NCBI GenBank assembly: GCA_050181585.1 | Contig: JBFXDA010000003.1 | Coordinates: 6,155-70,154, forward strand | Direction of reading: 5' to 3' | DNA from: Reyranellaceae bacterium | Lineage (GTDB): Bacteria > Pseudomonadota > Alphaproteobacteria > Reyranellales > JAQSWP01 | Length of the DNA: 64,000 bases | Shown: positions 154 through 17,944 of the stretch, piece by piece | How the letters are laid out: the number at the start of each line of letters is the position of its first letter | Position numbering within the stretch: the first letter of the stretch is position 1 | Translations under genes and position numbers: made by a program | The notes under the pieces: model-generated | Database searches by the model: none | What the model was told of the DNA's origin: nothing | Seen by the model: the letters and a program-made list of their open reading frames with translations, nothing else

Positions 154-166
154 TGAACCGTTTCAT
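154..166. promoter_or_regulatory. Operator-like site 1 (TGAACCGTTTCAT), about 70 nt upstream of the hyuA-like start
   Basis: Read directly: ttgtTGAACCGTTTCATAgaag. The arms TGAA/TTCA form an inverted repeat around a 4-nt core. The same 13-mer recurs at 8832-8844 (minus strand), 9608-9620 and 15559-15571 (minus strand), always between genes. Confidence 0.6.
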
Positions 167-234
167 AGAAGTGATAACGTGTTCGACGTAAATGCCGATG
201 GTGAAGCCAATTCTACAGAGAGGGGCGTAATCGA

Positions 235-2253
235 ATGCTCTGGGTGGGAGTCGACGTTGGCGGCACGTTTACGGACGGCGTGCTGTATAATAGCCAAACC
301 AAGGAATTCATGTTTGCGAAGGTGCCGTCGACGCCCGGCGATCCCGCGTCGGGGGTGATCGACGTGATCAAAGACCTCGACGTGAATATGGAGGCCATCG
401 ACCGCTTCGTGCACGGCGTGACGATCGGCACCAACACCATCCTGCAGCACCGCGGCGCCAAAGTCTGGATGATCGTCACCAAGGGTTTCGGCGACGTGCT
501 GGAGATAGCGCGTACGAATCGAGGGCATCAACTTTACGACATCAGAACCGTCAAACCGGCGCCAATCGTCCCCCGCACGCAGTCGATCGAGATCAGCGAG
601 CGAGTCGCTTATGACGGGACCGAGGTTCTGGAGCTGGACGAACGGGAGATTCGCAGAGTCCTGCGAGGATTGCCGATCGCGGAGAACGACGCCATCGCCA
701 TATGTTTCCTGCACAGCTACCTGCATCCGAAGAACGAACAGCGCGTGGCCGAGATCGTTCGCGACGAATGCCCTGGCGTCTATGTGTGCACCTCGTCGGA
801 CGTTCTGGCCCAGTTCCGCGAGTACGAGCGCTTCAATACGACTGCCCTGAATGCCTATATCGGGCCGCTCATGGCGCGGTACCTGACGAACCTCCGCAAT
901 CGCTTGGGCGAGCGAGGCTACCGGAACGGCGTCTTCATCACGACCTCCAACGGCGGATCGGCGCCAGCGGAAAGGGCCATCCGGCTGCCCATCAGCACGG
1001 TGCTGTCGGGGCCGGCGGGCGGCGTCGCCGCGGCGCTGCATCTGGGCCGCGACAACGGATTGCCGAACTTGATCACGTGCGACATGGGCGGGACGAGCAC
1101 CGACGTCTGCCTGGTCACGGATTCGGAGGCTCCGGTAACGAACGAGCAGTTCATTGGCGGTTACGCCAACCGCACGCCGCAGATCGAGATCAATGCGGTC
1201 GGCGCCGGCGGCGGCAGCATCGCCTGGCTCGATGCGGGCGACATTCTGATGGTTGGGCCGCAGAGCGCGGGAGCCAATCCGGGCCCGGCTTGCTATGGGC
1301 AAGGCGGAACGTCGCCCACGGTCACCGATGCCAATCTGGTCCTGAATCGCCTCAGCCCGGATACGTCGCTGGCCGGGCGGATCGCGCTCGACAGGAATCT
1401 GGCGCTCGAGGTCCTGCGACCCCTCGGCGCGAAACTGGGCCTCAAGGAACTGAACCTCGCGGACGGCATCGTCCAAATCGCCGTCGCGCGCATGGTCAGC
1501 GCGATCAAGCAGATCTCGATCACGCAGGGCCACGATCCGCGCGATTTCGTCCTGTGCGCGTATGGCGGCGCCGGCCCCATGCATGCGGCCTTCATCGCCG
1601 ACGAGCTGGAGATCGGCAGGATAATCGTGCCGGTCGGACCGGGCAATTTCTGCGCGCTGGGATCGATCATCTCCGACGTCCGGCGCGACTACGTCTCGAC
1701 CCGGTTGATGCAGACGCAAGGGATCGCCTTCTCGTTGGTCGAAGACACGTTCAGCCAGATGGAAGAGAAAGCCCAATCCGACCTCCTGGCGGAGGGAATA
1801 GACCATCGCGAGATCGAACTCCGAAGAGTGCTCGGGATGCGATATGTCGGCCAGAGCTGGGAGCTGGAAGTGCCGTTGCCTGGTTCGATCACATCGCTTG
1901 AAGCTCTCGACGAGGCTTTCTTCAAGATCTACCAAAGGCGCTTCGGCCAGAATATCAAGGCTCCGACCGAAATTGTGACTTTCCGGCTGGCGGCGCTGGG
2001 CCGGGGCGAGAAGCCGAAGTTCTCGAAGTGGCGCGGACTCGGCGGATTGGAAGACGCGAAGCTGGCGGAGCGCGACGTCTATTTCGGCGGTTCTTATCTG
2101 CCGACGGCGATCTACGATCGGCAGAAGCTCTCGGCCGGCGTCGAGATCAACGGTCCCGCCATCATCGAGGAGAGCGGCGCAACGACGATCGTTCCCCCCG
2201 CCTGGCGCGCAGTGGTGCAGGAATTCGGCCACCTGATGTTGGAGCGGAGATAG
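235..2253 (+). CDS. Hydantoinase/oxoprolinase family, A-type subunit (HyuA/OplA-like ATP-dependent cyclic-amide hydrolase), 672 aa
   Basis: ORF track 235..2253. The N-terminus MLWVGVDVGGTFTDGVLY is the actin-fold phosphate-binding motif typical of HyuA-type proteins. An AGAGAGGGG run lies about 9 nt upstream of the ATG. There is a 4-nt gap to the B-type partner. Confidence 0.9.
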   Translation: MLWVGVDVGGTFTDGVLYNSQTKEFMFAKVPSTPGDPASGVIDVIKDLDVNMEAIDRFVHGVTIGTNTILQHRGAKVWMIVTKGFGDVLEIARTNRGHQLYDIRTVKPAPIVPRTQSIEISERVAYDGTEVLELDEREIRRVLRGLPIAENDAIAICFLHSYLHPKNEQRVAEIVRDECPGVYVCTSSDVLAQFREYERFNTTALNAYIGPLMARYLTNLRNRLGERGYRNGVFITTSNGGSAPAERAIRLPISTVLSGPAGGVAAALHLGRDNGLPNLITCDMGGTSTDVCLVTDSEAPVTNEQFIGGYANRTPQIEINAVGAGGGSIAWLDAGDILMVGPQSAGANPGPACYGQGGTSPTVTDANLVLNRLSPDTSLAGRIALDRNLALEVLRPLGAKLGLKELNLADGIVQIAVARMVSAIKQISITQGHDPRDFVLCAYGGAGPMHAAFIADELEIGRIIVPVGPGNFCALGSIISDVRRDYVSTRLMQTQGIAFSLVEDTFSQMEEKAQSDLLAEGIDHREIELRRVLGMRYVGQSWELEVPLPGSITSLEALDEAFFKIYQRRFGQNIKAPTEIVTFRLAALGRGEKPKFSKWRGLGGLEDAKLAERDVYFGGSYLPTAIYDRQKLSAGVEINGPAIIEESGATTIVPPAWRAVVQEFGHLMLERR

Positions 2254-2257
2254 TCGC

Positions 2258-4366
2258 ATGAACGAAGCACTGCAAACTCAGGCCACCGGCGAAAGAATCA
2301 ACCCGATTACGCTGGAAGTGGTCACGGAAGCGATGATCGCCATCGTGCGGGAGATGCGCGCCACCGTCATTCGGTCGTCGTACTCTTCGGTCATTTTCGA
2401 GTTCGACGATTTCTCCTGCGCGTTGTTCGACGCCGCGGGAAACATGGTCGCGCAGTCCTGGGATCACCCGGGACACGTCCTGCCTTTGCCGTGGGGCGTG
2501 CGCTGCACGCTCGAAGACTATAAGGGCGACATCAATCCGGGAGACGTCTTTCTTCTCAACGACCCCTATCGCGGCGGCACGCATCTGAACGACGTCGCCG
2601 TGATCTATCCGGTCTTCGACGAGCACGGCAAACTGATTCTGTTCCCGGCCGTCAGGGCGCACTGGCCGGACGTCGGCGGCATGGTTCCCGGCAGCTATTC
2701 GGGCCTGTCCACCAACGTTTATCAGGAAGGGGTGCGGATACCGCCGATCAAGATCGTGGAAGGCGGCATCGAGAATCGCTCGGCCCTGACTCTGCTCATG
2801 ACCAATATGCGCGTGCCCGAGGAGAGGGAAGGCGATCTTCGCGCCGCTATCGGCGCGTGCAAGGTCGCCGAGGTGCGCATCGCGAAACTGTACAAGAAAT
2901 ATGGCGCCGCCGTCGTCAACGACTGCGTCGCGCTGCAGCTCGATCGCACGGAACGCCGACTGCGGGAGAAAATCGCTCCCCTGCCGGACGGCGATTACTA
3001 TTACGAGGACTATCTGGAGTATTTCGACGACGGGATATTCGACCCGGTCCTGGTCCGCTTCAAACTGACGGTCAAAGGCGACCAGCTGATCGCCGATTTT
3101 GCCGGATCGAACCCGCAAGTCCCCGGCGTCGTGAATTCGTCCCTTGCCGTGGCGGGCGCCGGCGTCTTCGTGGCGATCAAGGCGACGCTGGACCCTGGCG
3201 GCGCCGTCAATGAAGGAGCGTTCAGACCCATAGAACTGAGGGCGCCGGAAGGCTCGGTGGTCAACGTCCGTCTTGACGCGCCGGCGGGCGCGCATGGCGA
3301 GGTCCGCAAGCGCGGCGTATCGGTGGCGCTGGGCGCTCTGTCGCAGATCATCCCGGACCTCGTCTCGGGGGATCTGTGCGGCTCGTCCTTCCCCAATAAT
3401 TTCGGCGGCTTCAACAAGAAGCGGAATCGCCACTTCATCTACCTGGAGGCGCCGGCGGGCGGCAATGGCGGTTTGCTGGGCCAGGACGGCCCCAGCGCGA
3501 TGGTCAATGTCGACTTCGGCAATCTCCCTTCCATCCAGAATGCGGAAGTCACCGAGAGCGAGATGCCGGTTCTGGTCGAGGGCGCCTGGCTGCGCACCGA
3601 TTCGGGCGGCGAGGGCGCGGGCAGGGGCGGCCTGGGAATGCGCCGTCAGGTTCGCCTCCTGGATGGCGAGGCAAGCTACTCGGTGCTCAGCGATCGCGCG
3701 GTCATTCCGCCCTACGGGGTTTTCGGCGGTCGCAGCGGCGCTCCCTACCGGGTTTCCGTGCTCACGGGAAATCAGGAGCACATGTTCAATACGCCGGGAA
3801 AGGTCACGGGACACCCGATGGGCAAGGGCGAGGTTCTCGTCATGCAATCGTCCGGGGGCGGGGGATACGGGGACCCGCTCGAGCGGGATCCGCAAAAGGT
3901 TCGGGCGGATTTGCTGGCCGGCTACATTTCCGGGGATCGCGCCAACAACGGCTATGGCGTGCAGTTCAGGGCCGACGGAGAAGTGGACGTCGAGGCGACG
4001 CGCAAACGCCGCGCCGAACTGCAGAAGGCCAGGAAATCGTTTCGGATCCTCGCCGATAGCGAACTCGCGCCCTACGAAGGACGACGGGGCTGGCACCGGA
4101 TGGTGGATATGTCCGAGGATATGGCCAAGAGCCTGGGGGCGGCGCCTGGCCAACTGGTGGAGCTGCTGGGTCGCCACCCCGCTCCCCTGCGCGGCTGGGT
4201 CCGGATTCGGAAAGGACATCCTGCAGACACGTTGAAGATGGACGATTTCGGCATGAAGGTGCTGGGATTGCGCACCGGCGATTCGATCGAGGTGCGGGTG
4301 GTCGAAAGCCCGGTGCCGGCCGCCGTCATGGCATCGAATCCAGCCAAGCCGGCGCCGCCGTCGTAA
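2258..4366 (+). CDS. Hydantoinase B/oxoprolinase family subunit (HyuB/OplB-like) with an extra C-terminal domain of about 130 aa, 702 aa
   Basis: ORF track 2258..4366. The N-terminus INPITLEVVTEAMIAIVREMRATVIRSSYS is typical of HyuB. The gene is tightly coupled to the A subunit. The tail after about aa 565 is not part of the usual HyuB core. Confidence 0.9.
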   Translation: MNEALQTQATGERINPITLEVVTEAMIAIVREMRATVIRSSYSSVIFEFDDFSCALFDAAGNMVAQSWDHPGHVLPLPWGVRCTLEDYKGDINPGDVFLLNDPYRGGTHLNDVAVIYPVFDEHGKLILFPAVRAHWPDVGGMVPGSYSGLSTNVYQEGVRIPPIKIVEGGIENRSALTLLMTNMRVPEEREGDLRAAIGACKVAEVRIAKLYKKYGAAVVNDCVALQLDRTERRLREKIAPLPDGDYYYEDYLEYFDDGIFDPVLVRFKLTVKGDQLIADFAGSNPQVPGVVNSSLAVAGAGVFVAIKATLDPGGAVNEGAFRPIELRAPEGSVVNVRLDAPAGAHGEVRKRGVSVALGALSQIIPDLVSGDLCGSSFPNNFGGFNKKRNRHFIYLEAPAGGNGGLLGQDGPSAMVNVDFGNLPSIQNAEVTESEMPVLVEGAWLRTDSGGEGAGRGGLGMRRQVRLLDGEASYSVLSDRAVIPPYGVFGGRSGAPYRVSVLTGNQEHMFNTPGKVTGHPMGKGEVLVMQSSGGGGYGDPLERDPQKVRADLLAGYISGDRANNGYGVQFRADGEVDVEATRKRRAELQKARKSFRILADSELAPYEGRRGWHRMVDMSEDMAKSLGAAPGQLVELLGRHPAPLRGWVRIRKGHPADTLKMDDFGMKVLGLRTGDSIEVRVVESPVPAAVMASNPAKPAPPS

Positions 4367-4490
4367 AGCGATGTTTGCGCTGCCTTGCTTTGTTCGGCGG
4401 CATTCGGGTCGCGGCGGGTCGTGATCGCAAACGCGGCGGCAACAGCATCCTGCCAGCGGGGCATCCAACAGCCAAAAAAACGAGGACACC

Positions 4491-5372
4491 ATCAGTACCA
4501 CGGTCAGCGTCATAGGTTTGGGCGCCATGGGGTGCGCCATTTCGCGGGTCCTTGCCGGCGCGGGATACAAGGTCACCGCCTGGAATCGAACGCCGCGCGA
4601 TTTCTCGACGCTTTCGGCTTTGGGCATATCGCTCGCGGAGCAAGCAGTTGACGCCGTCGCGGCAAGCGACTTGGTCATTCTCATCACGTCGAACTACCCG
4701 AGCGCCCAATCGGCTCTATCCGAGGCCGCATCCCGCAAGCGCCTCGGCGGAAAGACGGTCGTGCAGCTGGTGAGCGGCAGTCCCGACGACGCCGTCCGGT
4801 TCGCCGCCTGGATAGAGGCGCAGGACGCGCTGTATCTGGATGGAGCGCTCAAGGCCAATCCCAGCGATATCGGCTCGCCATTGGGAACGTACCTGATTGC
4901 GGGTCGGGAGGACGCCTTCCACGGCGCCTCGAAGATGCTATCCGCCTTCGGCGGCCGCCTGATCCATCTGGGCGAAAAAGTCGCCCTGGCGAAGGCGTTC
5001 GATTGCGCCCTGTTCGCGAGGAACTACACATGGATGGCCGGCTACTTCGAGGGGCTGGCTTTGGCAAAAGCCAGCGGCATAGCGGCGAAGGACTATACAT
5101 CCCTGTGCTTGCTGCTGATCGACCGGGTTCGGGTCAACATCGAGCGCAGCGCCGCCCAGATTGAGAGCGACACGTATCCGCCGGCGCGGGAGGCGACGGT
5201 CGCCGTCCACGAAGCCGCGGTAAGAGCGACCCTCGACTACTCGGAAGAGCAGAAGCTGGACATGCCGGCCCTCAGGGTAGCGCAGCAATATCTGGCGAAG
5301 GCAATTGCCGCGGGATACGGGCAGCATGAACTGGCTGCGTGCTTCAAAGCGGCCTTTGCGCGAGAACCTTGA
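4491..5372 (+). CDS. NAD(P)-dependent oxidoreductase, beta-hydroxyacid / 6-phosphogluconate dehydrogenase-like
   Basis: The ORF track starts at TTG 4518 (MGAMGCAISRVLAGAGYKVTAWNRTP). The Rossmann beta1-GxGxxG element (VSVIGLGAMG) extends upstream of that codon. Between the in-frame stop at 4422 and 4518 there is no ATG, GTG, TTG or CTG. GAGGA at 4482-4486 followed by ATC at 4491 suggests a non-canonical start. The 3' end at 5372 is firm. Confidence 0.75.
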   Translation: MSTTVSVIGLGAMGCAISRVLAGAGYKVTAWNRTPRDFSTLSALGISLAEQAVDAVAASDLVILITSNYPSAQSALSEAASRKRLGGKTVVQLVSGSPDDAVRFAAWIEAQDALYLDGALKANPSDIGSPLGTYLIAGREDAFHGASKMLSAFGGRLIHLGEKVALAKAFDCALFARNYTWMAGYFEGLALAKASGIAAKDYTSLCLLLIDRVRVNIERSAAQIESDTYPPAREATVAVHEAAVRATLDYSEEQKLDMPALRVAQQYLAKAIAAGYGQHELAACFKAAFAREP

Positions 5373-5480
5373 TCCGGCGCCGCGGCTTCAACGTCGTGGC
5401 GACGGCAAAACGACTCTGTCGATGAACCGACGCCTTCCGTCCGGAGTCGACGAGCGGGAATACACGCGGGGTGGAGAAGA

Positions 5481-6785
5481 ATGAGCAATCTTTATACGCG
5501 GTCCGGGGAAATCTACGAGCGGGCGCTCAAGGTCTTTCCAGGCGGCAATACCCGCATCACCTATGTCATGACGCCGTTCGCCCCGTATGCGGCGAAAGGC
5601 GAGGGGGCGCATGTCTGGGACGCCGATGGCCAAGAATACCTCGATCTCGCCAACAACTTTTTCTCCCTTATCCACGGCCATGCCAAAGCCGAGATAGCCA
5701 ATGCCATTATCGATGTCGTGTCGTCCGGCACCGCCTTCGGGCTGCCGACGCAGCACGAAGTCCTGCTGGCAGAGGAGATATGCTGCAGATCGAGCGCATT
5801 CGAACAAATAAGATTCGTCAACAGCGGCACCGAAGCGGTCATGATGGCGATCAAGGCCGCTCGGGCATTCAGCCGGAAAACGAAGATCGCCAAGGTCGAA
5901 GGAGGCTATCACGGCTCCTACGACCACATGGAGGTCTCGCTCGATTCGTCGCCGAAGAACTGGGGAGCGGAGGAGCCTGCTTCCGTCGCCTACACGAGGG
6001 GGACCCCGCAAAGCGTCCTGGACGAAACCGTCGTGCTCCCCTTCAACGATGCGGAGCGCGCCGTATCGATCATCGAGAAGCATGCCAAGGACCTGGCGGC
6101 CGTGATCATCGACCCGATGCCGTCCCGTGTCGGGATGATTGCGGCGACGCGCGAGTTCCTGGACGCGATCCGCGACGTGACCAGACGCCACCAGATCGTG
6201 CTGATATTCGACGAAGTCATCTCGTTCCGCCTCGATATCGGCGGCGCCCATGGCCTTATGGGCGTGGAGCCCGATTTGATCGCGCTGGGAAAGATCATCG
6301 GCGGCGGGCTTCCCATCGGCGCCATAGCCGGCAAGCGCGAGGTGATGAGCGTATTCGATTGGCGTTTCGGCAAGCCATTGCTGCCGGCCGGGGGAACCTT
6401 CGCGGCAAATCCGGTGACCATGGCGGCGGGACTGGCTTCGATGCGGCTTCTCACGCCGGCCGCGCTGAGCAGGCTCAATGCGCTGGGCGAGCATTTCCGC
6501 GCCGGCATGCGGCAGATATTCGCCGCCGAAGGCGCCGCGTGGCAGGTCACGGGGGGCGGTTCCCTGTTCCGCCTGCATCCGCACACGCGGCCGGTAACGG
6601 ACTATCGCTCGAGCTATCCCACCGACGACGAGAAAAACAAGATAGACCGGCTTTACCGCGAGCTGCTGAAGCGAGGCGTACTGCTCACGCTCAATTGCTC
6701 GGGCGCCATTTCCACGCCGACGCAGGAAGCCGATATCGACCGCGTCCTGGTCGTGCTGCGGGATCTTGTCAAAGAGGGATTCTAG
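5481..6785 (+). CDS. Class-III (omega) aminotransferase, glutamate-1-semialdehyde aminomutase-like, 434 aa
   Basis: ORF track 5481..6785. It has the KVFPGGNTR N-terminal motif and the PLP-lysine context ALGKIIGGGLPIGA, both typical of the GSA-aminomutase / class-III family. Confidence 0.9.
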   Translation: MSNLYTRSGEIYERALKVFPGGNTRITYVMTPFAPYAAKGEGAHVWDADGQEYLDLANNFFSLIHGHAKAEIANAIIDVVSSGTAFGLPTQHEVLLAEEICCRSSAFEQIRFVNSGTEAVMMAIKAARAFSRKTKIAKVEGGYHGSYDHMEVSLDSSPKNWGAEEPASVAYTRGTPQSVLDETVVLPFNDAERAVSIIEKHAKDLAAVIIDPMPSRVGMIAATREFLDAIRDVTRRHQIVLIFDEVISFRLDIGGAHGLMGVEPDLIALGKIIGGGLPIGAIAGKREVMSVFDWRFGKPLLPAGGTFAANPVTMAAGLASMRLLTPAALSRLNALGEHFRAGMRQIFAAEGAAWQVTGGGSLFRLHPHTRPVTDYRSSYPTDDEKNKIDRLYRELLKRGVLLTLNCSGAISTPTQEADIDRVLVVLRDLVKEGF

Positions 6786-6882
6786 GAATCCAGCCTGGAA
6801 TGCGGATAGCCCGCCCGATCGGCCGGCCCTCGGCTGCCGTCGCCGCGGCGAACCGGAACGTCCTGTTAGGCGGAATGGAAAA

Positions 6883-7392
6883 GTGAACGATCTCCCGTAC
6901 GAGCTGCCCGATCTCGACCTCTCCGCGCCGCTGAGCAGGTTCCGCGAAACCGTCAAAAGCGAGTGGATAGACTGGAACGGCCATATGAACGTGGGGTACT
7001 ACGTCATTCTGTTCGACCGGGCCAGCAGCGTGCTGTTCGACCAGTTCGGTTGCGGTCCGGATTACGGATTGCATAAGGTCGGATTGGCGTTCGTATTGGA
7101 AGCCCATCTGACGTATGAGCGGGAGGTCAGGGCCGGCGCCACGATAGCGATAACCTCGCAGATCCTGGCTTACGATGCGAAACGCCTGCACTATTTCCAC
7201 ACGATGTACGATTCGCACGACAATTCCCGCGTCGCGACAAACGAGCTCGTGGCGATCAATATTTCCTATCACAGCCGCCGTTCGGCGCCGTGGCCGGATT
7301 TCGCCATCGACCGCATAGAAAGACTGTATTCCGCGCACGGCGCGCTCCCCCGGCCAAGCCAGGTCGGCCGCGCCGTCGGCTTGCGGCGCTAG
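6883..7392 (+). CDS. Hotdog-fold acyl-CoA thioesterase (4HBT/YbgC-like)
   Basis: ORF track 6766..7392. The conserved part begins around VKSEWIDWNGHMNVGYYVILFD. I placed the start at in-frame GTG 6883, downstream of the aminotransferase stop. The start is uncertain. Confidence 0.7.
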   Translation: MNDLPYELPDLDLSAPLSRFRETVKSEWIDWNGHMNVGYYVILFDRASSVLFDQFGCGPDYGLHKVGLAFVLEAHLTYEREVRAGATIAITSQILAYDAKRLHYFHTMYDSHDNSRVATNELVAINISYHSRRSAPWPDFAIDRIERLYSAHGALPRPSQVGRAVGLRR

Positions 7393-7475
7393 GGCCAGCA
7401 ACGAGCCGTTACGGGCTTTAAACGACTAGCCCTTCTTCGCGTGGGCGGGCGAAGGCGCGTGGGCTGCCGGAATTC

Positions 7476-8696
7476 CTACAATATGATTCTTTCCTTGCGC
7501 AGGGTTTCGATCGATCGAGGCATGTGGCCTGCCGCGCGCAGTATTTCTTCGGTATGTTCGCCCAGCATCGGCGATCGGAACCTGTGGCCGCTGGGAGTCG
7601 CCGTCATTCGAATCGGCGTGTTGGCGACACCGAAGGTCTTCTGGACCGACCCGGGATGAGCCATCTCGACGATCATCGACCGCACTTGGGCATGGAGATC
7701 CGACACGATGTCCTGCGCCGAATTGACCGGCCCGAAAGGCACGTGGCCGCCCAGCTTGTCTTTCAGCTCGTCCCGTGAATGCAGGGAGGTCCATTCGCTG
7801 ACGATGGCGAGGACTTCCTGCCGGCGGGCAAGTCGCTGCTCGTTCGTTATGAAATTCTGGTTGTTGGCCAATCCAGGCCCATCGATGATCTGGGCGAGGG
7901 TGGCCCAAAAGGGATCGGGGCAGGCGATGCTGACGAACCCGTCATTCGCGGGAAATATGCCGAACGGACAGACGAGCGGATGGTGGTTGCCTTCCGGCGC
8001 CGGATTCATCCCGGTATACGAGAACTGATGTATCAGCCTCTCGCATACGGATATGACGCTGTCGTACATCGACACGTCGACGAACTGGCCCTCGCCTGTG
8101 AGCTGGGCATGGCGATAGGCGGCCAGAACGCCGATCGCCAGGAACAGGCCGGGTATGATGTCGCCCAGGCTCGGGCCGGCCTTGCTCGGATGCGCTTCGT
8201 CGGGCCCCGATCCTCCGACCAGGCCGCCCATCGCCTGCGCAATGACGTCGAAACAAGGCCAGTCCGCATACGGACTCTTGCCCGTGCGGGGATCTCCAAA
8301 ACCGCGAACCGCGCCGTAGACGATCCGCGGATTGATCTTCTTGAAGGATTCGTACGACAAGCCCAGACGCTCCATCACGCCAGGGCGAAAGTTCTCGAGG
8401 ATCAGATCGGTGCTTTTGGCGAGGGCCAAAATCGTCTCTCGCCCTTTCTTCTCTTTCAAGTTGATGGCTATGCTCTTCTTTCCGCAATTGATGCTCTGGA
8501 AGTAGCCGCCGAATGCCGGGTTGGCGTTCGCCGGCGGAAACGGGCCCAAACGCCGGGAGCGATCGCCTTCCAGGAACTCTACTTTCAAAACCTCAGCGCC
8601 GAGGTCGGCGAAAATCATCGAACAATAGGGACCGGCAAGCATCTGGGTAAAGTCGAGGACCCGTACGCCGTGCAAAGGTCCTGGTTCTTTCAACAT
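7476..8696 (-). CDS. Family III CoA-transferase (CaiB/BaiF/Frc-like), 406 aa
   Basis: ORF track 7476..8696. It carries the N-terminal signature GVRVLDFTQMLAGPYCSMIFADLGAEVLKVE. A GGAAGGAAG Shine-Dalgarno sequence lies upstream of the ATG on the minus strand. Confidence 0.9.
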   Translation of the reverse strand: MLKEPGPLHGVRVLDFTQMLAGPYCSMIFADLGAEVLKVEFLEGDRSRRLGPFPPANANPAFGGYFQSINCGKKSIAINLKEKKGRETILALAKSTDLILENFRPGVMERLGLSYESFKKINPRIVYGAVRGFGDPRTGKSPYADWPCFDVIAQAMGGLVGGSGPDEAHPSKAGPSLGDIIPGLFLAIGVLAAYRHAQLTGEGQFVDVSMYDSVISVCERLIHQFSYTGMNPAPEGNHHPLVCPFGIFPANDGFVSIACPDPFWATLAQIIDGPGLANNQNFITNEQRLARRQEVLAIVSEWTSLHSRDELKDKLGGHVPFGPVNSAQDIVSDLHAQVRSMIVEMAHPGSVQKTFGVANTPIRMTATPSGHRFRSPMLGEHTEEILRAAGHMPRSIETLRKERIIL

Positions 8697-8828
8697 TCCG
8701 CTTCCTTCCTATAGGTATTCGCGTATGCGAACGCGTTCTCCATTGGTCAAAGCGATGGCAAGCGGCGGAATCATCGGTTCCATTCCGGCGTAAGTCCGAC
8801 TTGACATAACTATTGGCCATTTGCTCAT

Positions 8829-8857
8829 ATTATGAAACGGTTCACAAAACTTGGCAA
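8829..8857 (-). promoter_or_regulatory. Candidate sigma-70 promoter of the CoA-transferase gene, with operator site 2 in its spacer
   Basis: The minus strand reads TTGCCA-agttttgTGAACCGTTT-CATAAT. The -35 is at 8852-8857 and the -10 at 8829-8834, with a 17-nt spacer. The 13-mer TGAACCGTTTCAT (8832-8844) spans the spacer and the -10. Confidence 0.55.
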
Positions 8858-9578
8858 TAGGACTAACGGGCAATGCTGCTGCGCGGGCAGCGCCGACCGA
8901 CCTGCTTTCCGACAACTCACATGCAATATGATTGCGTCCGCTTGAGAGGCGCGGATGTGAAACGGCAGCACTCTAGAACGGATCGTTCGAATCCTTCCGC
9001 CGCGTGTCGGGCTGCTACTGCAGCTTTCCGGGGAGGAGACTCGCAAGCCGGGGAATTGCTGGCCAAGGCGATGCCGGAATGCGACGTCGAAGGACGACAT
9101 CTCGGGAAAGTCCTGGAGCTTGCAGTTCAGCCATCGGCGCCTGAGGCAGCCGCGGGAAGAGTTGGGTGCGGGACAGCCGCGAACATCGTGGTTGGTACGC
9201 GAGTAGTTCACTTGCTCAGCACGCAACATGATCCGATTGCCGCGCAGCCGGCCTTAACAGCCGCAAAGCGGATAAACGGACGGGCGCTGGCGTCCGGCGA
9301 GCGGTGCAGTATCCGACTCCGAAGAGCAGCGGAGCAAGAGGCTGCGCTCGGTCGGGGGAATACTCGCTCTGCCCTTTGTGCCAACCAGCGCCAAACGAAA
9401 AGAGGAGCAGACTCAATCGCCTGCCGCCCGAAAACCGGGAGCTGACTGTAACCGATACTCACGTTTTTGTTCGTGTCCATGCCGGGCCGACATCGGCTGC
9501 GCTCCTCAATTAATGGCGATCGCAATCAAGGCTATGGACGCCATGCGGATCCGCAGCGCGGCGTTCGGAAAGCGTCAG

Positions 9579-9620
9579 TTGACACAAAACCGCCACCGCG
9601 TTTAACATGAACCGTTTCAT
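9579..9620 (+). promoter_or_regulatory. Candidate promoter of the ABC-transporter operon, overlapped by operator site 3
   Basis: TTGACA (9579-9584), an 18-nt spacer, then TAACAT (9603-9608). aTGAACCGTTTCAT (9607-9620) overlaps the -10. The flanks CGCGTTT / AAACGCG extend the dyad. The ATG at 9637 follows a GAGGGGG Shine-Dalgarno sequence. Confidence 0.5.
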
Positions 9621-9636
9621 AAAACGCGAGGGGGTC

Positions 9637-10929
9637 ATGACAAAGGAACCGAAGAACAGAGTTGCTGTCTCCCGACGCCGAGTGCTTGGGACGGCAGCCG
9701 CCGCAGGGGCATTGACATTTGGAGTGCCGTTCATTCCTCGTGCGCAAGCCCCGACCATTCGCATCGGAATTCTTCATCCAGTCACCGGCGCATTGAGTGA
9801 AACCGGGCAATCCATGCGTTTGGCCGCCCAGATGGCGGCGGAATACATAAACGGCAATGGCGGCATCAAGTCCATGGGCGGCGCCCGCATCGAGCTCGTC
9901 TACGGCGATACGCAAAGCAATGCGGACGTCGCCAAGACGGAGGCGGAGCGCCTCGTCAACTCGGGCGTCGTCATGCTGCAGGGGGCATTCCATTCCGGGC
10001 ACACGGCGGCCATCGTGCCGATCGCGCAGCAGCGGCAGATACCCCTGATGATCGATCTGGGCAGTTCGGCGGCAATAACCGCGAACGTGGCGCAATCGGT
10101 GCGCGAAGGGAAGCAGAAGCTCCAGTACGTCTATCGAGTCTGCCCTTCATCCAACGTCTATGCCGCTTCGACGGTCAAGCACATGGCGGAGCTGTTCGCG
10201 GATGCCGGCGTCTCGGTGAAGCGCTGCGCCATGCTGCTGTCGAACGATTTGCTCGCGCAGTCCACCGGCACCCGTCTCAAGACCGAGATTGCGAAGGCGA
10301 ACGCCGGGTTCTCGATCGTCGATTCGATCGACTATCCCGAGAATGCCGTCGACCTCTCGACCGAGATCTCGCGCATAAAGGCCATGAAGCCGGACGTGAT
10401 CATTCCGATCGTGCGGCCGGCAACCGCGTCGATCATGCTGCAGGAACTGTACCGGCAGCGCGTCGACTACATGGGCATCATAGCGTCGGCGTCTTCCGGC
10501 CTTTACGAGCCATACCAGATAAACGCGCTGAAGAATCTGATCGAGTTCGTCATGAACGATCTGCCGTGGCCGAATTTCCGTCGGCCCCGCATGGACCAGA
10601 TCTCGGCGGAATACAGCAAGAGAGCCAATGGCCTGGCTTTCGACCTGAATTCCGGATTCGCCTACGAGACGCAATTGGTCATCGCCGATGTCCTGGAGCG
10701 CGCCAAGACGACCGATCCGGTCGGCCTGGTCGAGGCTATCAAAAAGACGGAATTCCACGGCAGCATCAGCATCAACAACGGCCCCATCCGCTTCGACGAG
10801 AATGGCGACAACGCGGCCGGCGGCACCGCCATGCTGCAGATACTGCGCGGAAAGACGCAGGTGGTTTGGCCCAAGGACGCGGCCGAGACGGAGTACGTTT
10901 TCCCCAGCACCAAGCAGCGAAGGCCTTAG
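9637..10929 (+). CDS. ABC transporter periplasmic substrate-binding protein (Liv/branched-chain amino acid-type, family 4), Tat-type signal peptide
   Basis: ORF track 9607..10929. The internal ATG at 9637 gives MTKEPKNRVAVSRRRVLGTAAAAGALTFG..AQA, which has a twin-arginine leader. The 9607 ATG lies inside the operator palindrome. Confidence 0.85.
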   Translation: MTKEPKNRVAVSRRRVLGTAAAAGALTFGVPFIPRAQAPTIRIGILHPVTGALSETGQSMRLAAQMAAEYINGNGGIKSMGGARIELVYGDTQSNADVAKTEAERLVNSGVVMLQGAFHSGHTAAIVPIAQQRQIPLMIDLGSSAAITANVAQSVREGKQKLQYVYRVCPSSNVYAASTVKHMAELFADAGVSVKRCAMLLSNDLLAQSTGTRLKTEIAKANAGFSIVDSIDYPENAVDLSTEISRIKAMKPDVIIPIVRPATASIMLQELYRQRVDYMGIIASASSGLYEPYQINALKNLIEFVMNDLPWPNFRRPRMDQISAEYSKRANGLAFDLNSGFAYETQLVIADVLERAKTTDPVGLVEAIKKTEFHGSISINNGPIRFDENGDNAAGGTAMLQILRGKTQVVWPKDAAETEYVFPSTKQRRP

Positions 10930-10989
10930 TGCGATCTTCCGACGTGGCTCGACTGGACTATTGCTGCAGAAGATCGGGGGAGAGGCATA

Positions 10990-11865
10990 GTGTTGGATCC
11001 AGAGCTGCTCATACAGGCGATAATTAACGGGGTATTGCTGGGCGGCGTCTACGCCCTGATGGCGACGGGCCTGAGTCTGATTTTCGGCGTGATGCGCGTC
11101 ATCAATTTCGCCCATGGCGAAATGATGGTGCTCGGCATGTATGTCGCGTTCCTTTGCAAGAGCCTGCTTGGCGCCGATCCATTCGTCGCGTGGCCCGTCG
11201 CCGCTCTCGTGTTGTTCTTCCTGGGCGTCTTCATCCAACGCTATGTCATCAACCGGATCCTCGACGCGCCGCACGAAATCCAGCTCCTCCTGATGCTCGG
11301 GCTGGCTCTCGTGCTGCAGAATACCTTCCTGGTGCTGTTTGGCCCGGCGCCGAAAAGCGTCGGGTCCTTCATGTCGCTCTGGACGGTGTGGCTCGGCCCG
11401 TGGTTCATCGACATGCCGCGTCTGATCACGTTCGGCCTCGCGGTGGTCGTCACCGGCCTGCTTTTCGTATTCCTCCAATATTCCAGAATGGGCCGCGAAA
11501 TCAGGGCGGCATCCGACAACCCGTACGGCGCCAAGGTAATCGGACTCGATTCGAGATTCATCTATGCCGTGGCGTTCGGCATCGGGGCCGCCTGCGTCGG
11601 CATAAGCGGGACGCTGGTCGCCTCGTTCGTGAATTTCGATCCCTCGATGGGCTTCGTGCTCGGCGTGACTTCGTTCTACGTCGTGATAATCGGCGGCATG
11701 GGCAACATTCCCGGCGCGTTTCTCGGAGGATTGGTGGTCGCGATCGGGGAGTCGCTCGGGGCGGTCTTGCTGTCGCCGTCGTTGAAGCAGCTGGTCTCGT
11801 TCTCGCTGTTCATCGTAATTCTGCTTTTCCGACCGGCCGGTCTGCTGGGGCGGGGCAGGCTATGA
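10990..11865 (+). CDS. Branched-chain amino acid-type ABC permease (LivH-like), 291 aa
   Basis: ORF track 10990..11865, starting at GTG. The protein is hydrophobic and multi-pass and contains the motif INFAHGEMMVLGMY, which is typical of LivH. Confidence 0.9.
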   Translation: MLDPELLIQAIINGVLLGGVYALMATGLSLIFGVMRVINFAHGEMMVLGMYVAFLCKSLLGADPFVAWPVAALVLFFLGVFIQRYVINRILDAPHEIQLLLMLGLALVLQNTFLVLFGPAPKSVGSFMSLWTVWLGPWFIDMPRLITFGLAVVVTGLLFVFLQYSRMGREIRAASDNPYGAKVIGLDSRFIYAVAFGIGAACVGISGTLVASFVNFDPSMGFVLGVTSFYVVIIGGMGNIPGAFLGGLVVAIGESLGAVLLSPSLKQLVSFSLFIVILLFRPAGLLGRGRL

Positions 11866-12815
11866 AACACTGGCCGCTTCTGCTTCTCCTCGTCGTTCTC
11901 GGGTTGCTTCCGCTCGCGGTGAATTCCCACATTCTGGCCGTCCTGACCCTGATCTTCTATTACGGATTTCTCGGCCAGGCCTGGAACATCATCGGCGGTT
12001 ACGGGGGGCAGCTCTCGTTCGGACACGCGGCGTTCTTCGGTTGCGCCGCCTATGTTACCGTCATGCTCTCCATGACCATAGGCCTCACGCCGTGGATCGG
12101 CATGTTCGTCGGCTCCCTGGCCGCCGGCGTGCTCGGCGCCGCCATGGGGTATCTGGGATTCCGCTTCGGCCTGAGAGGGTTCTATTTCGCGCTTCTGACG
12201 GTGGCGGTGGCGGAGATCGCGCGCATCATCGCCCATAACACCGAGGCGATCGGCGGCGGCGTGGGCCTGTTCATCACCTATACCGGAAACCCCGCCGAAT
12301 TCCAGTTCAGCAATCCGATGACGTACTGCTACGTCGCCTTCACCATGATGCTGATAGCGACCGGCATCGTATGGCTGATCGAGCACTCGAAGTTCGGCAC
12401 CTATCTGACCGCAATCAGGGAGGACGAGGAAGCGGCCGCGTCGCTCGGGGTGAACGTCTTTCTCTACAAGATGTTCGCCTGCACGCTGTCCGCGTTCCTG
12501 ACGGGTTTCGGCGGCGCGTTCTACGCCTATCACCATTTCTCGCTTCAGCCGGACAGCGTGTTCGGCATGCCGCTGTCGGTGGAGATCGTCATCCGCCCGA
12601 TCATCGGCGGCCTGGGCACGGTTGCGGGGCCGATTCTGGGATCTCTGCTGCTCTCGCCGCTCGGTGAGATATCGCGCACCTTCTTCGCCGAAGTGGGTCG
12701 CCCCGGCGCCCACCTGATCGTCTATGGCGCGCTGCTCATGGCGGTGGCGCTGTTCATGCCGGGCGGGATCGTATCGCTGCTTCGTCGGCTGAACCTGCGG
12801 AGACCCCGGTCGTGA
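11862..12815 (+). CDS. Branched-chain amino acid-type ABC permease (LivM-like), 317 aa
   Basis: An in-frame ATG at 11862 within track ORF 11154..12815 makes an ATGA overlap with the livH-like stop. The product begins MKHWPLLLLLVVLG and contains QLSFGHAAFFG, which is typical of LivM. The upstream part of the track ORF is an Arg-rich out-of-frame overlap. Confidence 0.85.
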   Translation: MKHWPLLLLLVVLGLLPLAVNSHILAVLTLIFYYGFLGQAWNIIGGYGGQLSFGHAAFFGCAAYVTVMLSMTIGLTPWIGMFVGSLAAGVLGAAMGYLGFRFGLRGFYFALLTVAVAEIARIIAHNTEAIGGGVGLFITYTGNPAEFQFSNPMTYCYVAFTMMLIATGIVWLIEHSKFGTYLTAIREDEEAAASLGVNVFLYKMFACTLSAFLTGFGGAFYAYHHFSLQPDSVFGMPLSVEIVIRPIIGGLGTVAGPILGSLLLSPLGEISRTFFAEVGRPGAHLIVYGALLMAVALFMPGGIVSLLRRLNLRRPRS

Positions 12816-13540
12816 ACATGCTGGAGGTCAACAATCTCTCCAAAGGGTTTGGCGGGCTTATGGCGTTGCGGAACGTAACGTTCGAAATGCGGACCGGCGA
12901 GATTCTGGGGGTGATCGGGCCGAACGGAGCGGGCAAAACGACATTGTTCAATGTCATATCCGGCTCCATGTGGCCCGATACCGGCGACGTCCGCTTTTGC
13001 GGCAAAGGCATCGGCCGGATGCCGCCGCACGAAGTATGCAAGCTCGGCCTGGTGCGCACTTTCCAGATCGTCAGGCCGTTTGCCAAGCTGTCGGTCATCA
13101 AGAACATCGCGGTCGGGGCGCTGAACCGGACCAATCGGATGGCCGAAGCGCTTGCCCTGGCCGAGGAAATATCGGAGCGGGTCGGTCTTGGCGAGAAAAG
13201 GGACGCGCCTGCCACGTCTCTGACGCTGGCCGACCGCAAGCGCCTCGAACTGGCGAGGGCGCTGGCGACGACTCCAAGCCTGCTGCTGCTCGACGAGGTC
13301 ATGGCCGGACTGACGCCCACGGAAACCGACATGATCATCGACGTGATACGCTCGATCAGGCAATCCGGCACGTCGATTCTGCTCATCGAGCACAATCTTC
13401 GCGCCGTGATGGCCCTTTCCGAACGGCTCATCGTCCTGAACTTCGGCGAAAAAATCTCCGAAGGCAGTCCAGCCGAGGTCTCGAAGGATCCGCTCGTCAT
13501 CAAGGCCTATCTGGGCGAGAAAGGCGGATTGAGTGCTTAG
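12812..13540 (+). CDS. ABC transporter ATP-binding protein (LivG-like), 242 aa
   Basis: ORF track 12812..13540. It has the Walker A motif GPNGAGKTT, a signature/Walker B region LLLLDEVMAGL, and a 4-nt overlap with the permease gene. Confidence 0.9.
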   Translation: MNMLEVNNLSKGFGGLMALRNVTFEMRTGEILGVIGPNGAGKTTLFNVISGSMWPDTGDVRFCGKGIGRMPPHEVCKLGLVRTFQIVRPFAKLSVIKNIAVGALNRTNRMAEALALAEEISERVGLGEKRDAPATSLTLADRKRLELARALATTPSLLLLDEVMAGLTPTETDMIIDVIRSIRQSGTSILLIEHNLRAVMALSERLIVLNFGEKISEGSPAEVSKDPLVIKAYLGEKGGLSA

Positions 13541-14237
13541 GGTTTCGGAAATCCAGGCCGGATACCAGTCTCTCGTGGCGGTCCACGACGTTTCGCTCGA
13601 ACTCGAGGAAGGCGAGGCCGTTGCCCTGATCGGCTCCAACGGCGCGGGCAAAACCACGACGTTGCGCGCGATCGCGGGTCTCATCCCGATAAGCCGTGGA
13701 ACCATAGAATTCATGGGAAAGCGCATCGACAGGATGGAGTTCTCCAAGATCGCCGAACTTGGCCTGGTGCACATTCCGGAAGGCCGCGAGCTGTTCCCGA
13801 CAATGACGGTTCGCGAGAACCTCGAGCTTGGCGCCCAGACCCGCGAGGCGCGAGCCAAATCGAAGGCCAATCTCGACCGCGCCTTCGAGCTGTTTCCCGT
13901 CCTCAAGGAACGCGAGCGCCAGGCCGCCGGGACCCTTTCGGGGGGAGAACGGCAGATGTGCGCGATCGGACGCGGGCTCATGGCTTGTCCGCAACTGCTG
14001 ATGCTCGATGAACCCTCGCTTGGTCTGGCGCCGGTAATGGTCGAACGGATCATGGGCGATCTTACGCGCATCAAGGAGAACGGCCTGACGATACTTCTCG
14101 TCGAACAGCACGTCTCCCGCGCGCTCGAGCTTGCGCAGAAGGGTTACGTCATCGAGAACGGACGCATCACCCTGTCGGGCGATAGCGCAAGCCTGATCTC
14201 CAATCCGCGGGTTCAGGAAGCCTATCTCGGCATGTAG
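13533..14237 (+). CDS. ABC transporter ATP-binding protein (LivF-like), 234 aa
   Basis: ORF track 13533..14237. It has the Walker A motif GSNGAGKTT, the signature LSGGERQM and the Walker B motif LLMLDEPS. Confidence 0.9.
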   Translation: MLRVSEIQAGYQSLVAVHDVSLELEEGEAVALIGSNGAGKTTTLRAIAGLIPISRGTIEFMGKRIDRMEFSKIAELGLVHIPEGRELFPTMTVRENLELGAQTREARAKSKANLDRAFELFPVLKERERQAAGTLSGGERQMCAIGRGLMACPQLLMLDEPSLGLAPVMVERIMGDLTRIKENGLTILLVEQHVSRALELAQKGYVIENGRITLSGDSASLISNPRVQEAYLGM

Positions 14238-14256
14238 GGAAATCGGGAAGAACGAC

Positions 14257-15354
14257 GTGAAGATCAAGACGGTTCGGCCAATCGCGCTAAGTATTCCGGT
14301 CCGGTACGCGGGCAAGCCGCTGCAGCTTGCCGGCGCTCCCTGGCGCAACCAGGAAATAGTGCTGGTCGAGATCCGGACCGAGTCGGGCGCTGTCGGCTAT
14401 GGCGAAGCCTACTGCATCGTGGCGGGCATTCGAAACGCGCTGGTCAGTCTGGTCAACGACATGATCGCTCCGCTTCTGGTCGGCCAGAACGCGGCCGATA
14501 TCGCCGGCGTGGTGACTGGCTTGCAGCGTTCCGTGCAGCCTTTCGGCCGCTATGGGCTGATGATGGCAGCCGTATCGGGGGTCGACATCGCGCTCTGGGA
14601 TATTGCCGGGAAAGTCGCCAACCAACCGCTGAGCCGTCTGCTGGGCGGGTATCAGGAGGCCCTGCCGTCCGCCGCCAGTCTGGTGCGGACCGGCGATGCG
14701 TCCGAACTCGCTCGCAAGATCGAAGAGGCAATGGCGGCAGGCTACAAGGCCGTCAAGATCCACGAGAACGATCTCGGCTGCATCGCGGCCGCTCGATCCG
14801 CCGCCGGTCCGGATACCCGGATGAGCGTCGACATAAACTGCTCGTGGGATTTGCCCTATGCCCAGAAGGCCCTGAGCATCATCGGCGAAGCCCGTCCCTA
14901 TTTCGTCGAAGACCCGATTTGGCCGCCCGAGAACCTGAAAGGCCTGGCGCGTCTTCGCGCGCAGTCCGGATTGCTCATTGCGACCGGGGGCACCAGCTGC
15001 ACCGCTTGGGAGTTCCAGAACATTTTCGACGCGGACGCGGCCGATTTCTGCCAGCCGAGCGTGACGGTCGTGGGCGGCGTGACGGAAGTCCAGAAAATCG
15101 CGCATATTGCGCGGACCCGCAACGTCGCCTTGTCGCTGCACACGCCGTATTTCGGTCCCGGTCTTCTGGCGTCCCTCCATCTTGCGGCGGCGTACGGAAT
15201 GACCAACGAATTCGAGCGGCCGTTCTACGCTCTCGAGGCCGATCCTTACGGCGGGCAGTTTCTGGCCCGCGCCGGAGCGTCGCGGGTACCCAAAGGACCG
15301 GGACTCGGCGCCGACCCGGATCCGGCAGTCATCGAAAGATATGCCGTAAACTGA
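14257..15354 (+). CDS. Enolase-superfamily enzyme (mandelate racemase / muconate lactonizing enzyme family), 365 aa
   Basis: ORF track 14257..15354. The N-terminal capping domain (VLVEIRTESGAVGYGEAY) and barrel metal-ligand contexts (VDINCSWD, FVEDPIWP) are typical of the MR/MLE family. Confidence 0.8.
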   Translation: MKIKTVRPIALSIPVRYAGKPLQLAGAPWRNQEIVLVEIRTESGAVGYGEAYCIVAGIRNALVSLVNDMIAPLLVGQNAADIAGVVTGLQRSVQPFGRYGLMMAAVSGVDIALWDIAGKVANQPLSRLLGGYQEALPSAASLVRTGDASELARKIEEAMAAGYKAVKIHENDLGCIAAARSAAGPDTRMSVDINCSWDLPYAQKALSIIGEARPYFVEDPIWPPENLKGLARLRAQSGLLIATGGTSCTAWEFQNIFDADAADFCQPSVTVVGGVTEVQKIAHIARTRNVALSLHTPYFGPGLLASLHLAAAYGMTNEFERPFYALEADPYGGQFLARAGASRVPKGPGLGADPDPAVIERYAVN

Positions 15355-15558
15355 TTGCGACAATGGATTCGGCTCGCGCATCTGGCGCGAGCCGAACCGC
15401 ACGCACGAACCGAGCTTCGGCCGGCATCGCCAACCGATCGTTCCCGCTCGTCGCCCGCGATCCCGCTGCCCGATCGCGTTCGCCCTTGGCGCCGGCAAAC
15501 CAAAAATCCCCAATGGCGGTCAATCGTATTGAACTTGGAAGCAATAAGTGCTGAACTA

Positions 15559-15572
15559 ATGAAACGGTTCAT
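15559..15572. promoter_or_regulatory. Operator-like site 4 (ATGAAACGGTTCAT), abutting the Shine-Dalgarno sequence of the Mo-hydroxylase gene
   Basis: Read directly: ctaATGAAACGGTTCATAAGAGGctggcgTTG. The reverse complement contains the shared 13-mer TGAACCGTTTCAT. The site lies 13 nt upstream of the TTG start at 15585. Confidence 0.55.
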
Positions 15573-17915: not shown

Positions 17916-17944
17916 TTCTTGGAACGCATCTGGGGAAAACGGAC

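Follow-up and report, generated by a model that had tools for sequence, protein, structure and literature searches.

A 14-bp dyad of the form ATGAAmC|GkTTCAT, with a central CG, is repeated upstream of four adjacent transcription units of a catabolic island in an uncultured Reyranellaceae lineage and is probably the operator of a local regulon. We put the probability that it serves as the operator of one dimeric HTH repressor co-regulating all four units at roughly 0.7. The DNA analyzed was a single window of 64,000 nucleotides (64 kb). Within the window the 13-mer TGAACCGTTTCAT, contained in the dyad, occurs in four exact copies at 154-166 (+), 8832-8844 (-), 9608-9620 (+) and 15559-15571 (-), the same coordinates and strands as given in the preliminary description of this DNA. 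The corresponding 14-bp sites (S1 to S4), the promoter elements around them and the genes of the island are presented in Table 1.

Table 1. Putative operator sites, promoter elements and transcription units of the island, with positions in the window.
Feature	Position	Strand	Description
S1	153..166	+	TTGAACCGTTTCAT, 13/14 of dyad; 68 nt 5' of hyuA ATG at 235
S2	8832..8845	-	GTGAACCGTTTCAT on minus strand; 135 nt to CoA-transferase ATG at 8696
S3	9607..9620	+	ATGAACCGTTTCAT, full 14-bp dyad; 16 nt to SBP ATG at 9637
S4	15559..15572	+	ATGAAACGGTTCAT, full dyad, opposite orientation; 5' of Mo-hydroxylase operon
Putative weak hyuA promoter	142..169	+	ATGCAA-N16-CATAGA; inferred from sequence and S1/S2 similarity, not called by promoter scan
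Predicted sigma-70-like promoter	8829..8857	-	TTGCCA-N17-CATAAT; promoter scan, 10/12; CoA-transferase gene
Predicted sigma-70-like promoter	9579..9608	+	TTGACA-N18-TAACAT; promoter scan, 10/12; ABC transporter operon
Putative extended -10	15552..15560	+	TGaACTAAT; inferred from sequence, ends in first bases of S4
Unit 1	235..7392	+	hyuA, hyuB (caprolactamase-like), NAD-binding dehydrogenase, class III aminotransferase, thioesterase
Unit 2	7476..8696	-	Family III CoA-transferase
Spacer	8697..9636		Gene-free, 940 bp; divergent S2 and S3 promoters either side
Unit 3	9637..15354	+	Liv-type ABC transporter (SBP, two permeases, two ATPases), MR/MLE enolase-superfamily enzyme
Unit 4	15585..19969	+	Mo-hydroxylase large subunit, FAD (DAO) oxidoreductase, enoyl-CoA hydratase
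Hairpin	20016..20055	+	Perfect 19+19; ends cluster, at GC step

With respect to abundance, none of 100 dinucleotide-preserving shuffles contained any copy of TGAACCGTTTCAT, and all four copies fell in the non-coding 9.9% of positions 1-20000 (P ~1e-4), which upholds the earlier claim that they are not due to chance. The 13-mer is AT-rich (5/13 GC) in a window of 66% GC. Other 13-mers with at least four occurrences in the window were GC-rich coding words such as CAGCGCCAGCGCC. When up to three mismatches were allowed, the window gave only three-mismatch matches beyond the four loci, with no further site within two mismatches of the 13-mer, and the degenerate core TGAAMCGKTTCA with at most one mismatch returned only the four known sites. 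Across some 0.8 Mb of unrelated loci there were four matches at two or fewer mismatches and none that was exact. A scan of metagenomes with the bare 14-mer gave at least 120 single matches, most of them coding (92 of 120 sampled exact matches lay inside long open frames), and because of this coding location they were regarded as background. One metagenome locus with two matches was rejected as a CRISPR array, the repeat of which ends in GATGAACCG. The exact 32-mer around S1 was absent from the JGI metagenomes.

The arms TGAA/TTCA had been described as inverted repeats, and the motif is indeed a dyad. In S3 and S4, 12 of 14 positions (6/7 pairs) are self-complementary, a size of dyad which suits a dimeric HTH protein, and in both sites the symmetry stops at 14 nt, the outer pairs being non-complementary. 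The C|G centre is present in 4/4 sites and the central four bases are invariant. The "flipped core" previously reported for site 4 represents the reverse-complement orientation of a near-palindrome.

As had been claimed, every copy is intergenic and lies 5' of the first gene of a transcription unit, at measured distances of 13-135 nt. The distance for S4 is 13 nt to the TTG at 15585, or 61 nt to the ATG at 15633, where the deposited NCBI protein begins; for the SBP, NCBI protein MGE0151611.1 confirmed the start at 9637. Each end of the dyad contains an ATG (MKRF/MNRF); this was considered as a leader-peptide or start-codon signal and was rejected as coincidence, given the confirmed SBP start; the exact 440-aa SBP form starting at the ATG at 9607 was absent from the protein collection. 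The statement that all four promoter regions carry the motif stands in that four units are preceded by it, but it extends beyond this observation, since two gaps within the hyuA unit (151 nt and 108 nt) could hide unmarked promoters.

Only two sigma-70-like promoters at 10/12 were called by promoter scan in positions 1-20000, and these are the two overlapped by S2 and S3. Shuffled sequence gave a mean of 4.5 such matches, at arbitrary positions. S2 occupies the spacer and overlaps the -10 element of the predicted CoA-transferase promoter, while S3 begins at the last two bases of its -10 element (9603-9608) and spans the predicted transcription start of the ABC operon. Both the promoter at S2 and the -10 overlap at S3 had been pointed out in the preliminary description and were recovered by the scan. 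Core-promoter overlap at S1 and S4 is something we infer only, from the elements in Table 1; the layout of the putative hyuA promoter resembles that of the S2 promoter. S1 and S2 have 20 of 23 nt in common, including an upstream CAAnTTTTG, and the flanks of S2 and S4 are also similar, although flank similarity is pairwise only and reaches 23-26 nt at most. This likeness hints that the promoter segments may partly be of shared ancestry and not the result of independent selection.

The four units form a single functional and compositional block of about 20 kb, with a GC content of 0.60-0.63 versus 0.66-0.71 elsewhere in the window. Because S2 and S3 overlap predicted core promoters, which is the classic geometry, the sites are read as probable repressor operators; protein binding, repression, an inducer and any assignment to a regulator family are inferred. 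Under this reading the lower-GC catabolic island would have been acquired horizontally. Alongside an ATP-dependent, lactamase-like HyuAB it carries genes for an aminotransferase and a thioesterase; its other units encode a CoA-transferase, a Liv-type ABC importer together with an MR/MLE enzyme, and a Mo-hydroxylase accompanied by an FAD oxidase and an enoyl-CoA hydratase. When no inducer is present, the repressor would occupy the -35/-10 spacer at S1 and S2 and the -10/+1 region at S3 and S4, blocking RNA polymerase, and a pathway substrate or intermediate would bring about its release. Counting against this reading, the identical 13-mer, with the same central asymmetry, is present in 4/4 sites, which is more uniform than typical operators and would be expected about 1 time in 16 under a symmetric model; the S1/S2 and S2/S4 flank similarities point the same way.

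The search for a regulator gene agreed with the earlier observation that none is encoded in 235-19969, as none of the 15 cluster genes has a DNA-binding domain recognized by Pfam. In the 940-bp spacer, no Pfam domain was detected in any of the six frames with a cut-off as loose as E <= 10, no Rfam family was matched, and there was no tblastn similarity to ORFs, whether from the fetched loci or from the rest of the window; a decayed regulator there was therefore rejected. No NCBI protein lies between MGE0151610 and MGE0151611, which flank this spacer. The deposited proteins of the contig include MGE0151606.1 to MGE0151620.1, with MGE0151605.1 as the expected left-hand neighbour of hyuA, and the gene at 20208-20960 has the locus tag AB7R90_03315. 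The repressor-operator reading of the preliminary description is retained with respect to the dyad, the core-promoter overlap, the four catabolic units and the lack of a transcription-factor domain in 235-19969, but not its suggestion that a minus-strand ORF at the left edge (ATG 76-74, MPARQ...) could be the divergent regulator. This ORF had no match in a 5.8-billion-cluster protein database containing at least 10 other proteins from the same MAG, and being unmatched where those proteins are present, it does not correspond to an annotated gene beginning at this ATG. Peptide searches with left-edge ORFs of both strands likewise gave no match, and a weak terminator-like hairpin lies at 89-113 on the plus strand.

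Two IclR genes are located 6-12 kb to the right of S4. Each has its own distinct palindrome adjoining its own divergent operon; for one of them this is a three-box site at 28459-28499, the half-sites of which read ATGAAAA. Both of these genes (IclR1 and IclR2) and the LysR gene of the window were rejected as the regulator, no copy of the cluster motif being found near any of them and the palindrome of each IclR being different. The regulator gene would lie outside 235-19969, most likely to the left of the window in the same island or at another place in the genome.

Comparison with known operators gave two candidate families. The Cra/FruR box TGAAACGTTTCA, of the LacI family, is one base away from the motif (TGAACC|GTTTCA versus TGAAAC|GTTTCA) with identical half-site spacing. 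Operators of the LacI family are even palindromes with a central CG pair (PMC4052901), as is the motif here, and are mostly found 30-140 nt 5' of start codons with repressor action (PMC4052901). However, LacI-family motifs usually measure 16-22 nt, which at 14 nt the motif does not reach, and while autoregulation applies to about 72% of LacI regulators and most members of the family adjoin their targets, Pfam revealed no LacI or Peripla_BP_1/3 regulator among the window ORFs scanned. The IclR family box is TGRAMC/GKTYCA, appearing as GRAMC/GKTYC in the group 1 consensus and as TGRAAC/GTTYCA in group 2, the motif of which is TGRAACA-N1-2-TGTTYCA, e.g., of KdgR type (PMC8222616). Both half-sites of the motif, TGAAAC and TGAACC (GGTTCA), fit the family box; in group 2, however, the boxes are 3-4 nt apart (A-N1-2-T), whereas those of the motif abut (0 nt) at 4/4 sites. 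By sequence the motif is thus Cra/FruR-like to within one base and IclR-like in its half-sites at the wrong spacing.

No orthologous, syntenic cluster was present in the collections searched. With the CoA-transferase as query, 43 loci were recovered in a genome scan; the best was 55% identical, none was syntenic and none had the motif. The contexts of four HyuA homologues (62-65% identity) had only hyuAB and ABC genes as common content. Two metagenomic clusters with hyuAB, Liv-type ABC and CoA-transferase genes (L048 and L049) likewise repeat one palindrome at their promoters, although this is a 19-bp element, GAAynrTGAsTCAynrTTC, unlike the motif here, and the clusters differ from the island in gene content, with HyuA 65% identical. 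While L049 carries a TetR gene inside its cluster, no TetR homologue was found in the 64-kb window and a regulator of this kind was rejected.

In an unlikely variant, the island, with four invariant operators and no regulator of its own, came under the control of a host regulator in trans, or its regulator was lost to leave orphan operators and a constitutive pathway, or the regulator belongs to a family the known sites of which differ in geometry, for example an IclR-type protein on abutting boxes. If the last were true, the protein would respond to a lactam-like substrate and might become a new biosensor.

Binding of an activator or dual regulator, such as one of CRP/FNR type, would read the element as ATGAA-N4-TTCAT and is likewise unlikely. 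The element does contain the TGA-N6-TCA core of this superfamily, its 5-4-5 architecture recalls the FNR box TTGAT-N4-ATCAA, and with class II geometry at S1 a TAAAT-like -10 would fall at roughly 188-194 and the start about 34 nt before hyuA. Sites of this type have a variable, uncontacted centre and activate from positions near -41.5 or -61.5. The centre of S3, however, is just 23.5 nt from the SBP start codon, which makes activation from -41.5 impossible there, and the strong promoters predicted at S2 and S3 are overlapped by these sites at the -10 or start. The invariant central bases of the motif are also unlike an uncontacted centre, and the window ORFs scanned included no cNMP-binding or Crp-type gene.

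It is very doubtful that the motif is a short dispersed repeat or the end of a recombination or mobile element. The copies do alternate in orientation (+ - + -), so that the inverted pairs 154(+)/8832(-) and 9608(+)/15559(-) flank two gene modules; the S1/S2 arms extend to 23 nt with 87% complementarity, and the cluster is a lower-GC island. Orientation is nevertheless set by a single central base pair, the pattern having a chance of about 1 in 8, and similarity ends within 23-26 nt. Moreover, the cluster has no transposase or recombinase, every copy is at predicted or inferred promoter elements, and no copy occurs elsewhere in the window.

An RNA-level element in 5' leaders, with a hairpin masking the ribosome-binding site, has just as little to commend it. 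S3 and S4 are only 13-16 nt from start codons, and in the S3 leader fold the motif is paired to both SD and AUG (-10.5 kcal/mol, z = -2.6, equalled by 1 of 200 shuffles), but folds at S1, S2 and S4 were no better than those of shuffles (z 0 to -1.3). The stem of the motif itself consists of five weak pairs only, S2 would be untranscribed within its promoter spacer, the predicted transcription start at S3 is inside the motif, and S4 has the opposite orientation. Functionless repeats arising by chance or composition are extremely improbable, as the other 13-mers reaching at least four copies in the window are GC-rich coding words, whereas the motif is AT-rich, wholly non-coding, palindromic, promoter-associated and absent from all shuffles.

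As the operator of one repressor, the motif would join the four units in one regulon, which favours viewing the cluster as one pathway comprising caprolactamase-like HyuAB, the aminotransferase, CoA enzymes, the ABC importer and the Mo-hydroxylase. While it exemplifies routine bacterial regulation and reveals no new principle, the putative 14-bp operator provides a precise handle on the regulator and its inducer in this lineage. The best matches of the MR/MLE enzyme and the Mo enzyme were sugar-acid-like, and the cluster contains no clear sugar pathway. Logan contigs that match the window at 100% identity begin at its positions 1483 and 1488.

The four exact copies of the 13-mer TGAACCGTTTCAT named in the preliminary description, here called S1 to S4, were recovered at the hyuA, CoA-transferase, ABC transporter and Mo-hydroxylase units of the catabolic cluster (Table), and the 13-mer was present in 0/100 dinucleotide-preserving shuffles of the window. 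Relaxing the search to three mismatches added, elsewhere in the window, only matches that carried exactly three, and a search for the degenerate core TGAAMCGKTTCA that tolerated one mismatch found the four sites only (0.23 expected). Together with their flanks the sites form a 14-bp dyad, ATGAAmC/GkTTCAT, which is complete in S3 (ATGAACCGTTTCAT) and S4 (ATGAAACGGTTCAT) and holds at 13/14 positions in S1 and S2, where the first base is T and G respectively. The dyad centre is CG in all four. In one central pair C faces T, so that each site can be assigned an orientation, and relative to its gene S4 is the reverse complement of S1-S3; the flipped core described earlier at this site comes down to that orientation. 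Other 13-mers are also repeated in the window (66% GC), with CAGCGCCAGCGCC occurring five times and several further GC-rich coding words four times; unlike these, the motif is AT-rich, palindromic and entirely non-coding. Since 9.9% of positions 1-20000 is non-coding, placement of 4/4 copies there has a chance probability of ~1e-4. Unrelated loci totalling ~0.8 Mb gave four matches at up to two mismatches and no exact one, and in a metagenome sample 92 of 120 exact 14-mer matches fell in frames open for at least 150 codons, a good number of them being MKRF or MNRF gene starts. Both background samples point the same way. No auxiliary half-sites were found within 70 nt of any of the four sites. 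Two motif-like matches occurred together at a single metagenome locus (JGI contig Ga0255345_1074858), a CRISPR array whose type I-E-like repeat ends ...GGGGATGAACCG, and were rejected as coincidental.

Table. Coordinates of motif copies, genes and comparison palindromes (window coordinates unless a locus is named; cluster gene products assigned by Pfam and NCBIfam)
Feature	Position	Strand	Remark
S1	154-166	+	
S2	8832-8844	-	
S3	9608-9620	+	
S4	15559-15571	-	
hyuA	235-2253	+	best NCBIfam match caprolactamase alpha, under its cut-off
hyuB	2258-4366	+	best NCBIfam match caprolactamase beta, under its cut-off
NAD-binding dehydrogenase	4518-5372	+	
Class III aminotransferase	5481-6785	+	
Thioesterase	6883-7392	+	
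Family III CoA-transferase	7476-8696	-	
Liv-type ABC transporter	9637-14237	+	
MR/MLE enzyme	14257-15354	+	
Mo-hydroxylase large subunit	15585-17915	+	
DAO-type flavoprotein	to 19105	+	
Enoyl-CoA hydratase	19127-19969	+	
IclR1	26040-26924	+	divergent from own HpcH-TRAP operon
IclR2	27636-28529	-	divergent from own PhyH operon
LysR	31451-32434	-	
GAAynrTGAsTCAynrTTC	L048 2930-2948 and 7873-7891; L049 4635-4653		

The promoter at S2 and the -10 element at S3 reported previously were found again by a consensus scan of 1-20000, which returned just two sigma-70-like promoters at 10/12, each overlapped by the motif. S2 occupies the spacer of TTGCCA-N17-CATAAT (8857-8829, minus strand) and provides the CAT of the -10, while S3 starts at the final two bases of the -10 of TTGACA-N18-TAACAT (9579-9608, plus strand) and spans the predicted transcription start. 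S1 and S2 are identical at 20/23 nt, and a weaker counterpart promoter, ATGCAA-N16-CATAGA, may lie at S1; TGaACTAAT 5' of S4 is a candidate extended -10. The substrate-binding protein gene (SBP, first of the ABC transporter operon) starts at 9637 with a GAGGGGG Shine-Dalgarno and a twin-arginine-like signal, as does the NCBI protein, so the S3 centre lies just 23.5 nt from the start codon and a class II activator position is excluded. For the Mo-hydroxylase, TTG 15585 with an AAGAGG Shine-Dalgarno is favoured over ATG 15633, the start of the 760-aa NCBI protein; S4 is upstream with either start.

We put at about 0.7 the probability that the motif is a repressor operator common to four promoters in a single acquired catabolic island, with a putative single repressor, encoded outside the cluster, that would act at all four. 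Repressor operators shared among promoters are a well-known kind of system; the motif is useful for pathway annotation and for tracing its sensor, and is unsurprising to the specialist. An RNA hairpin is suggested by the S3 leader, which folded better than shuffles (z = -2.6), but leaders of S1, S2 and S4 did not fold notably better and S2 sits in a promoter spacer. The + - + - orientation, which encloses two modules, could mark a mobile or recombination element; however, this pattern depends on one base pair, flank conservation stops at 23-26 nt and no recombinase was found in the cluster with Pfam or NCBIfam. The TGA-N6-TCA core of a CRP/FNR-type activator site is present, but this reading is disfavoured by the invariant centre and by where S2, S3 and S4 lie. 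Chance, already dismissed in the preliminary description, is excluded by the shuffles, the AT-rich palindromic sequence and the non-coding placement.

With respect to the family of the putative repressor, LacI-family operators, even-length palindromes centred on CG and usually 16-22 nt long (PMC4052901), are nearest to the cluster site by spacing and central CG, and the Cra/FruR palindrome TGAAACGTTTCA is one base away. The half-sites also fit the IclR box TGRAMC/GKTYCA, but IclR group 2 boxes are 3-4 nt apart (PMC8222616) and those of the cluster site 0 nt. The MR/MLE enzyme best matches a sugar-acid dehydratase-like and the Mo subunit a glyceraldehyde-dehydrogenase-like protein; these matches are compatible with LacI and IclR alike and prove nothing.

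No DNA-binding domain was detected in the cluster proteins (Pfam, NCBIfam), and the 940-bp spacer (8697-9636) from which the CoA-transferase and SBP genes diverge is free of genes in the NCBI annotation because MGE0151610 (CoA-transferase) is directly followed by MGE0151611 (SBP); the earlier statement that the cluster lacks a regulator gene is thus upheld for 235-19969. The spacer gave no match to Pfam (six frames, E <= 10) or Rfam and no similarity to any ORF of the comparison loci. Gene calls on Logan contigs place a 190-aa ORF there, which has a non-coding-like GC3 of 0.60 and does not appear in the NCBI annotation, and a minus-strand terminator-like hairpin lies at 9406-9425. The left-edge minus-strand ORF (ATG 76), earlier offered as a possible regulator, found no support: a 55-aa version beginning at an ATG inside S1 had no word in common with a collection of 5.8 billion protein clusters. 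Since this collection contains at least 10 other proteins of the source genome assembly, an ORF with that N-terminus is not an annotated protein. A divergent gene may begin further left, or a plus-strand gene may end in the first 24-58 nt; a weak terminator-like hairpin is found on the plus strand at 89-113.

GC content is 0.60-0.63 in 1-20000 versus 0.66-0.71 in 20001-64000, and because of this step at ~20.0 kb the motif-bearing cluster is a compositional island whose left end lies beyond the window; it was probably acquired horizontally. The step coincides with a perfect 19+19 hairpin (20016-20055), and a second strong hairpin, long and imperfect (TAGAGCAAAT..CATGTTTTGACG / CGTCAAAACATGATTTGCTCTA), lies at ~20081-20131; these may be terminators, or else mark the edge of the island or the remnant of an attachment site. 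Scanning the CoA-transferases of 185,579 species genomes, where the nearest had 55% identity without synteny, gave no orthologous cluster, nor did the contexts of the closest HyuA proteins (65% identity), whose overlap with the window cluster is limited to hyuAB and a Liv-type ABC transporter. Two HyuA-homologue contexts from other metagenomic bacteria (L048, L049) carry a different 19-bp palindrome at corresponding promoter regions (Table), and L049 has a TetR gene (2715-3407) in its CoA-transferase operon, whereas no homologue of it was found in the window. These contexts show what would be the same regulatory logic with another protein-operator pair. A 32-mer around S1 was absent from JGI metagenomes. 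Two independent assemblies from Logan (SRR27751815, SRR27751816) match the window at 100% identity and start inside hyuA (1483-1488); a k-mer repeated at that point, or variation between strains, may account for the near-identical break.

The window HyuA is 100% identical to MGE0151606.1 (Reyranellaceae MAG). The NAD-binding dehydrogenase has no canonical start codon (4482-4520) and consecutive NCBI protein numbers pass over it; its expected N-terminus, (I)STTVSVIGLGAMG, would begin from ATC 4491, 4 nt past an SD-like GAGGA (4482-4486), and it may be a pseudogene or use a rare start codon. The CoxL/XdhA-type Mo-hydroxylase large subunit stands alone, followed by the DAO-type flavoprotein, and no [2Fe-2S] or FAD-binding partner was found in Pfam scans of window ORFs.

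No copy of the cluster motif was found near the IclR1, IclR2 or LysR genes (window scan). IclR1 has its own perfect palindrome, GGTCCATTATATGGACC (GGTCCAT-TAT-ATGGACC, 26056-26072), which is probably its operator; it falls just within the predicted 5' end of the ORF, and the true start is likely further downstream. The IclR2/PhyH divergent region (28459-28499, AAATGAAAATCGTTTTCAATAAATGAAAACGA) holds three ATGAAAA boxes of alternating direction, matching the three-box IclR arrangement of PMC8222616; this half-site is similar to that of the cluster motif, with a 3-bp difference in spacing. Elsewhere in the window (42183-53487 and 59714-60391) are urea ABC transporter, urease and accessory genes and a HicA/HicB toxin-antitoxin pair, which are unconnected with the motif.
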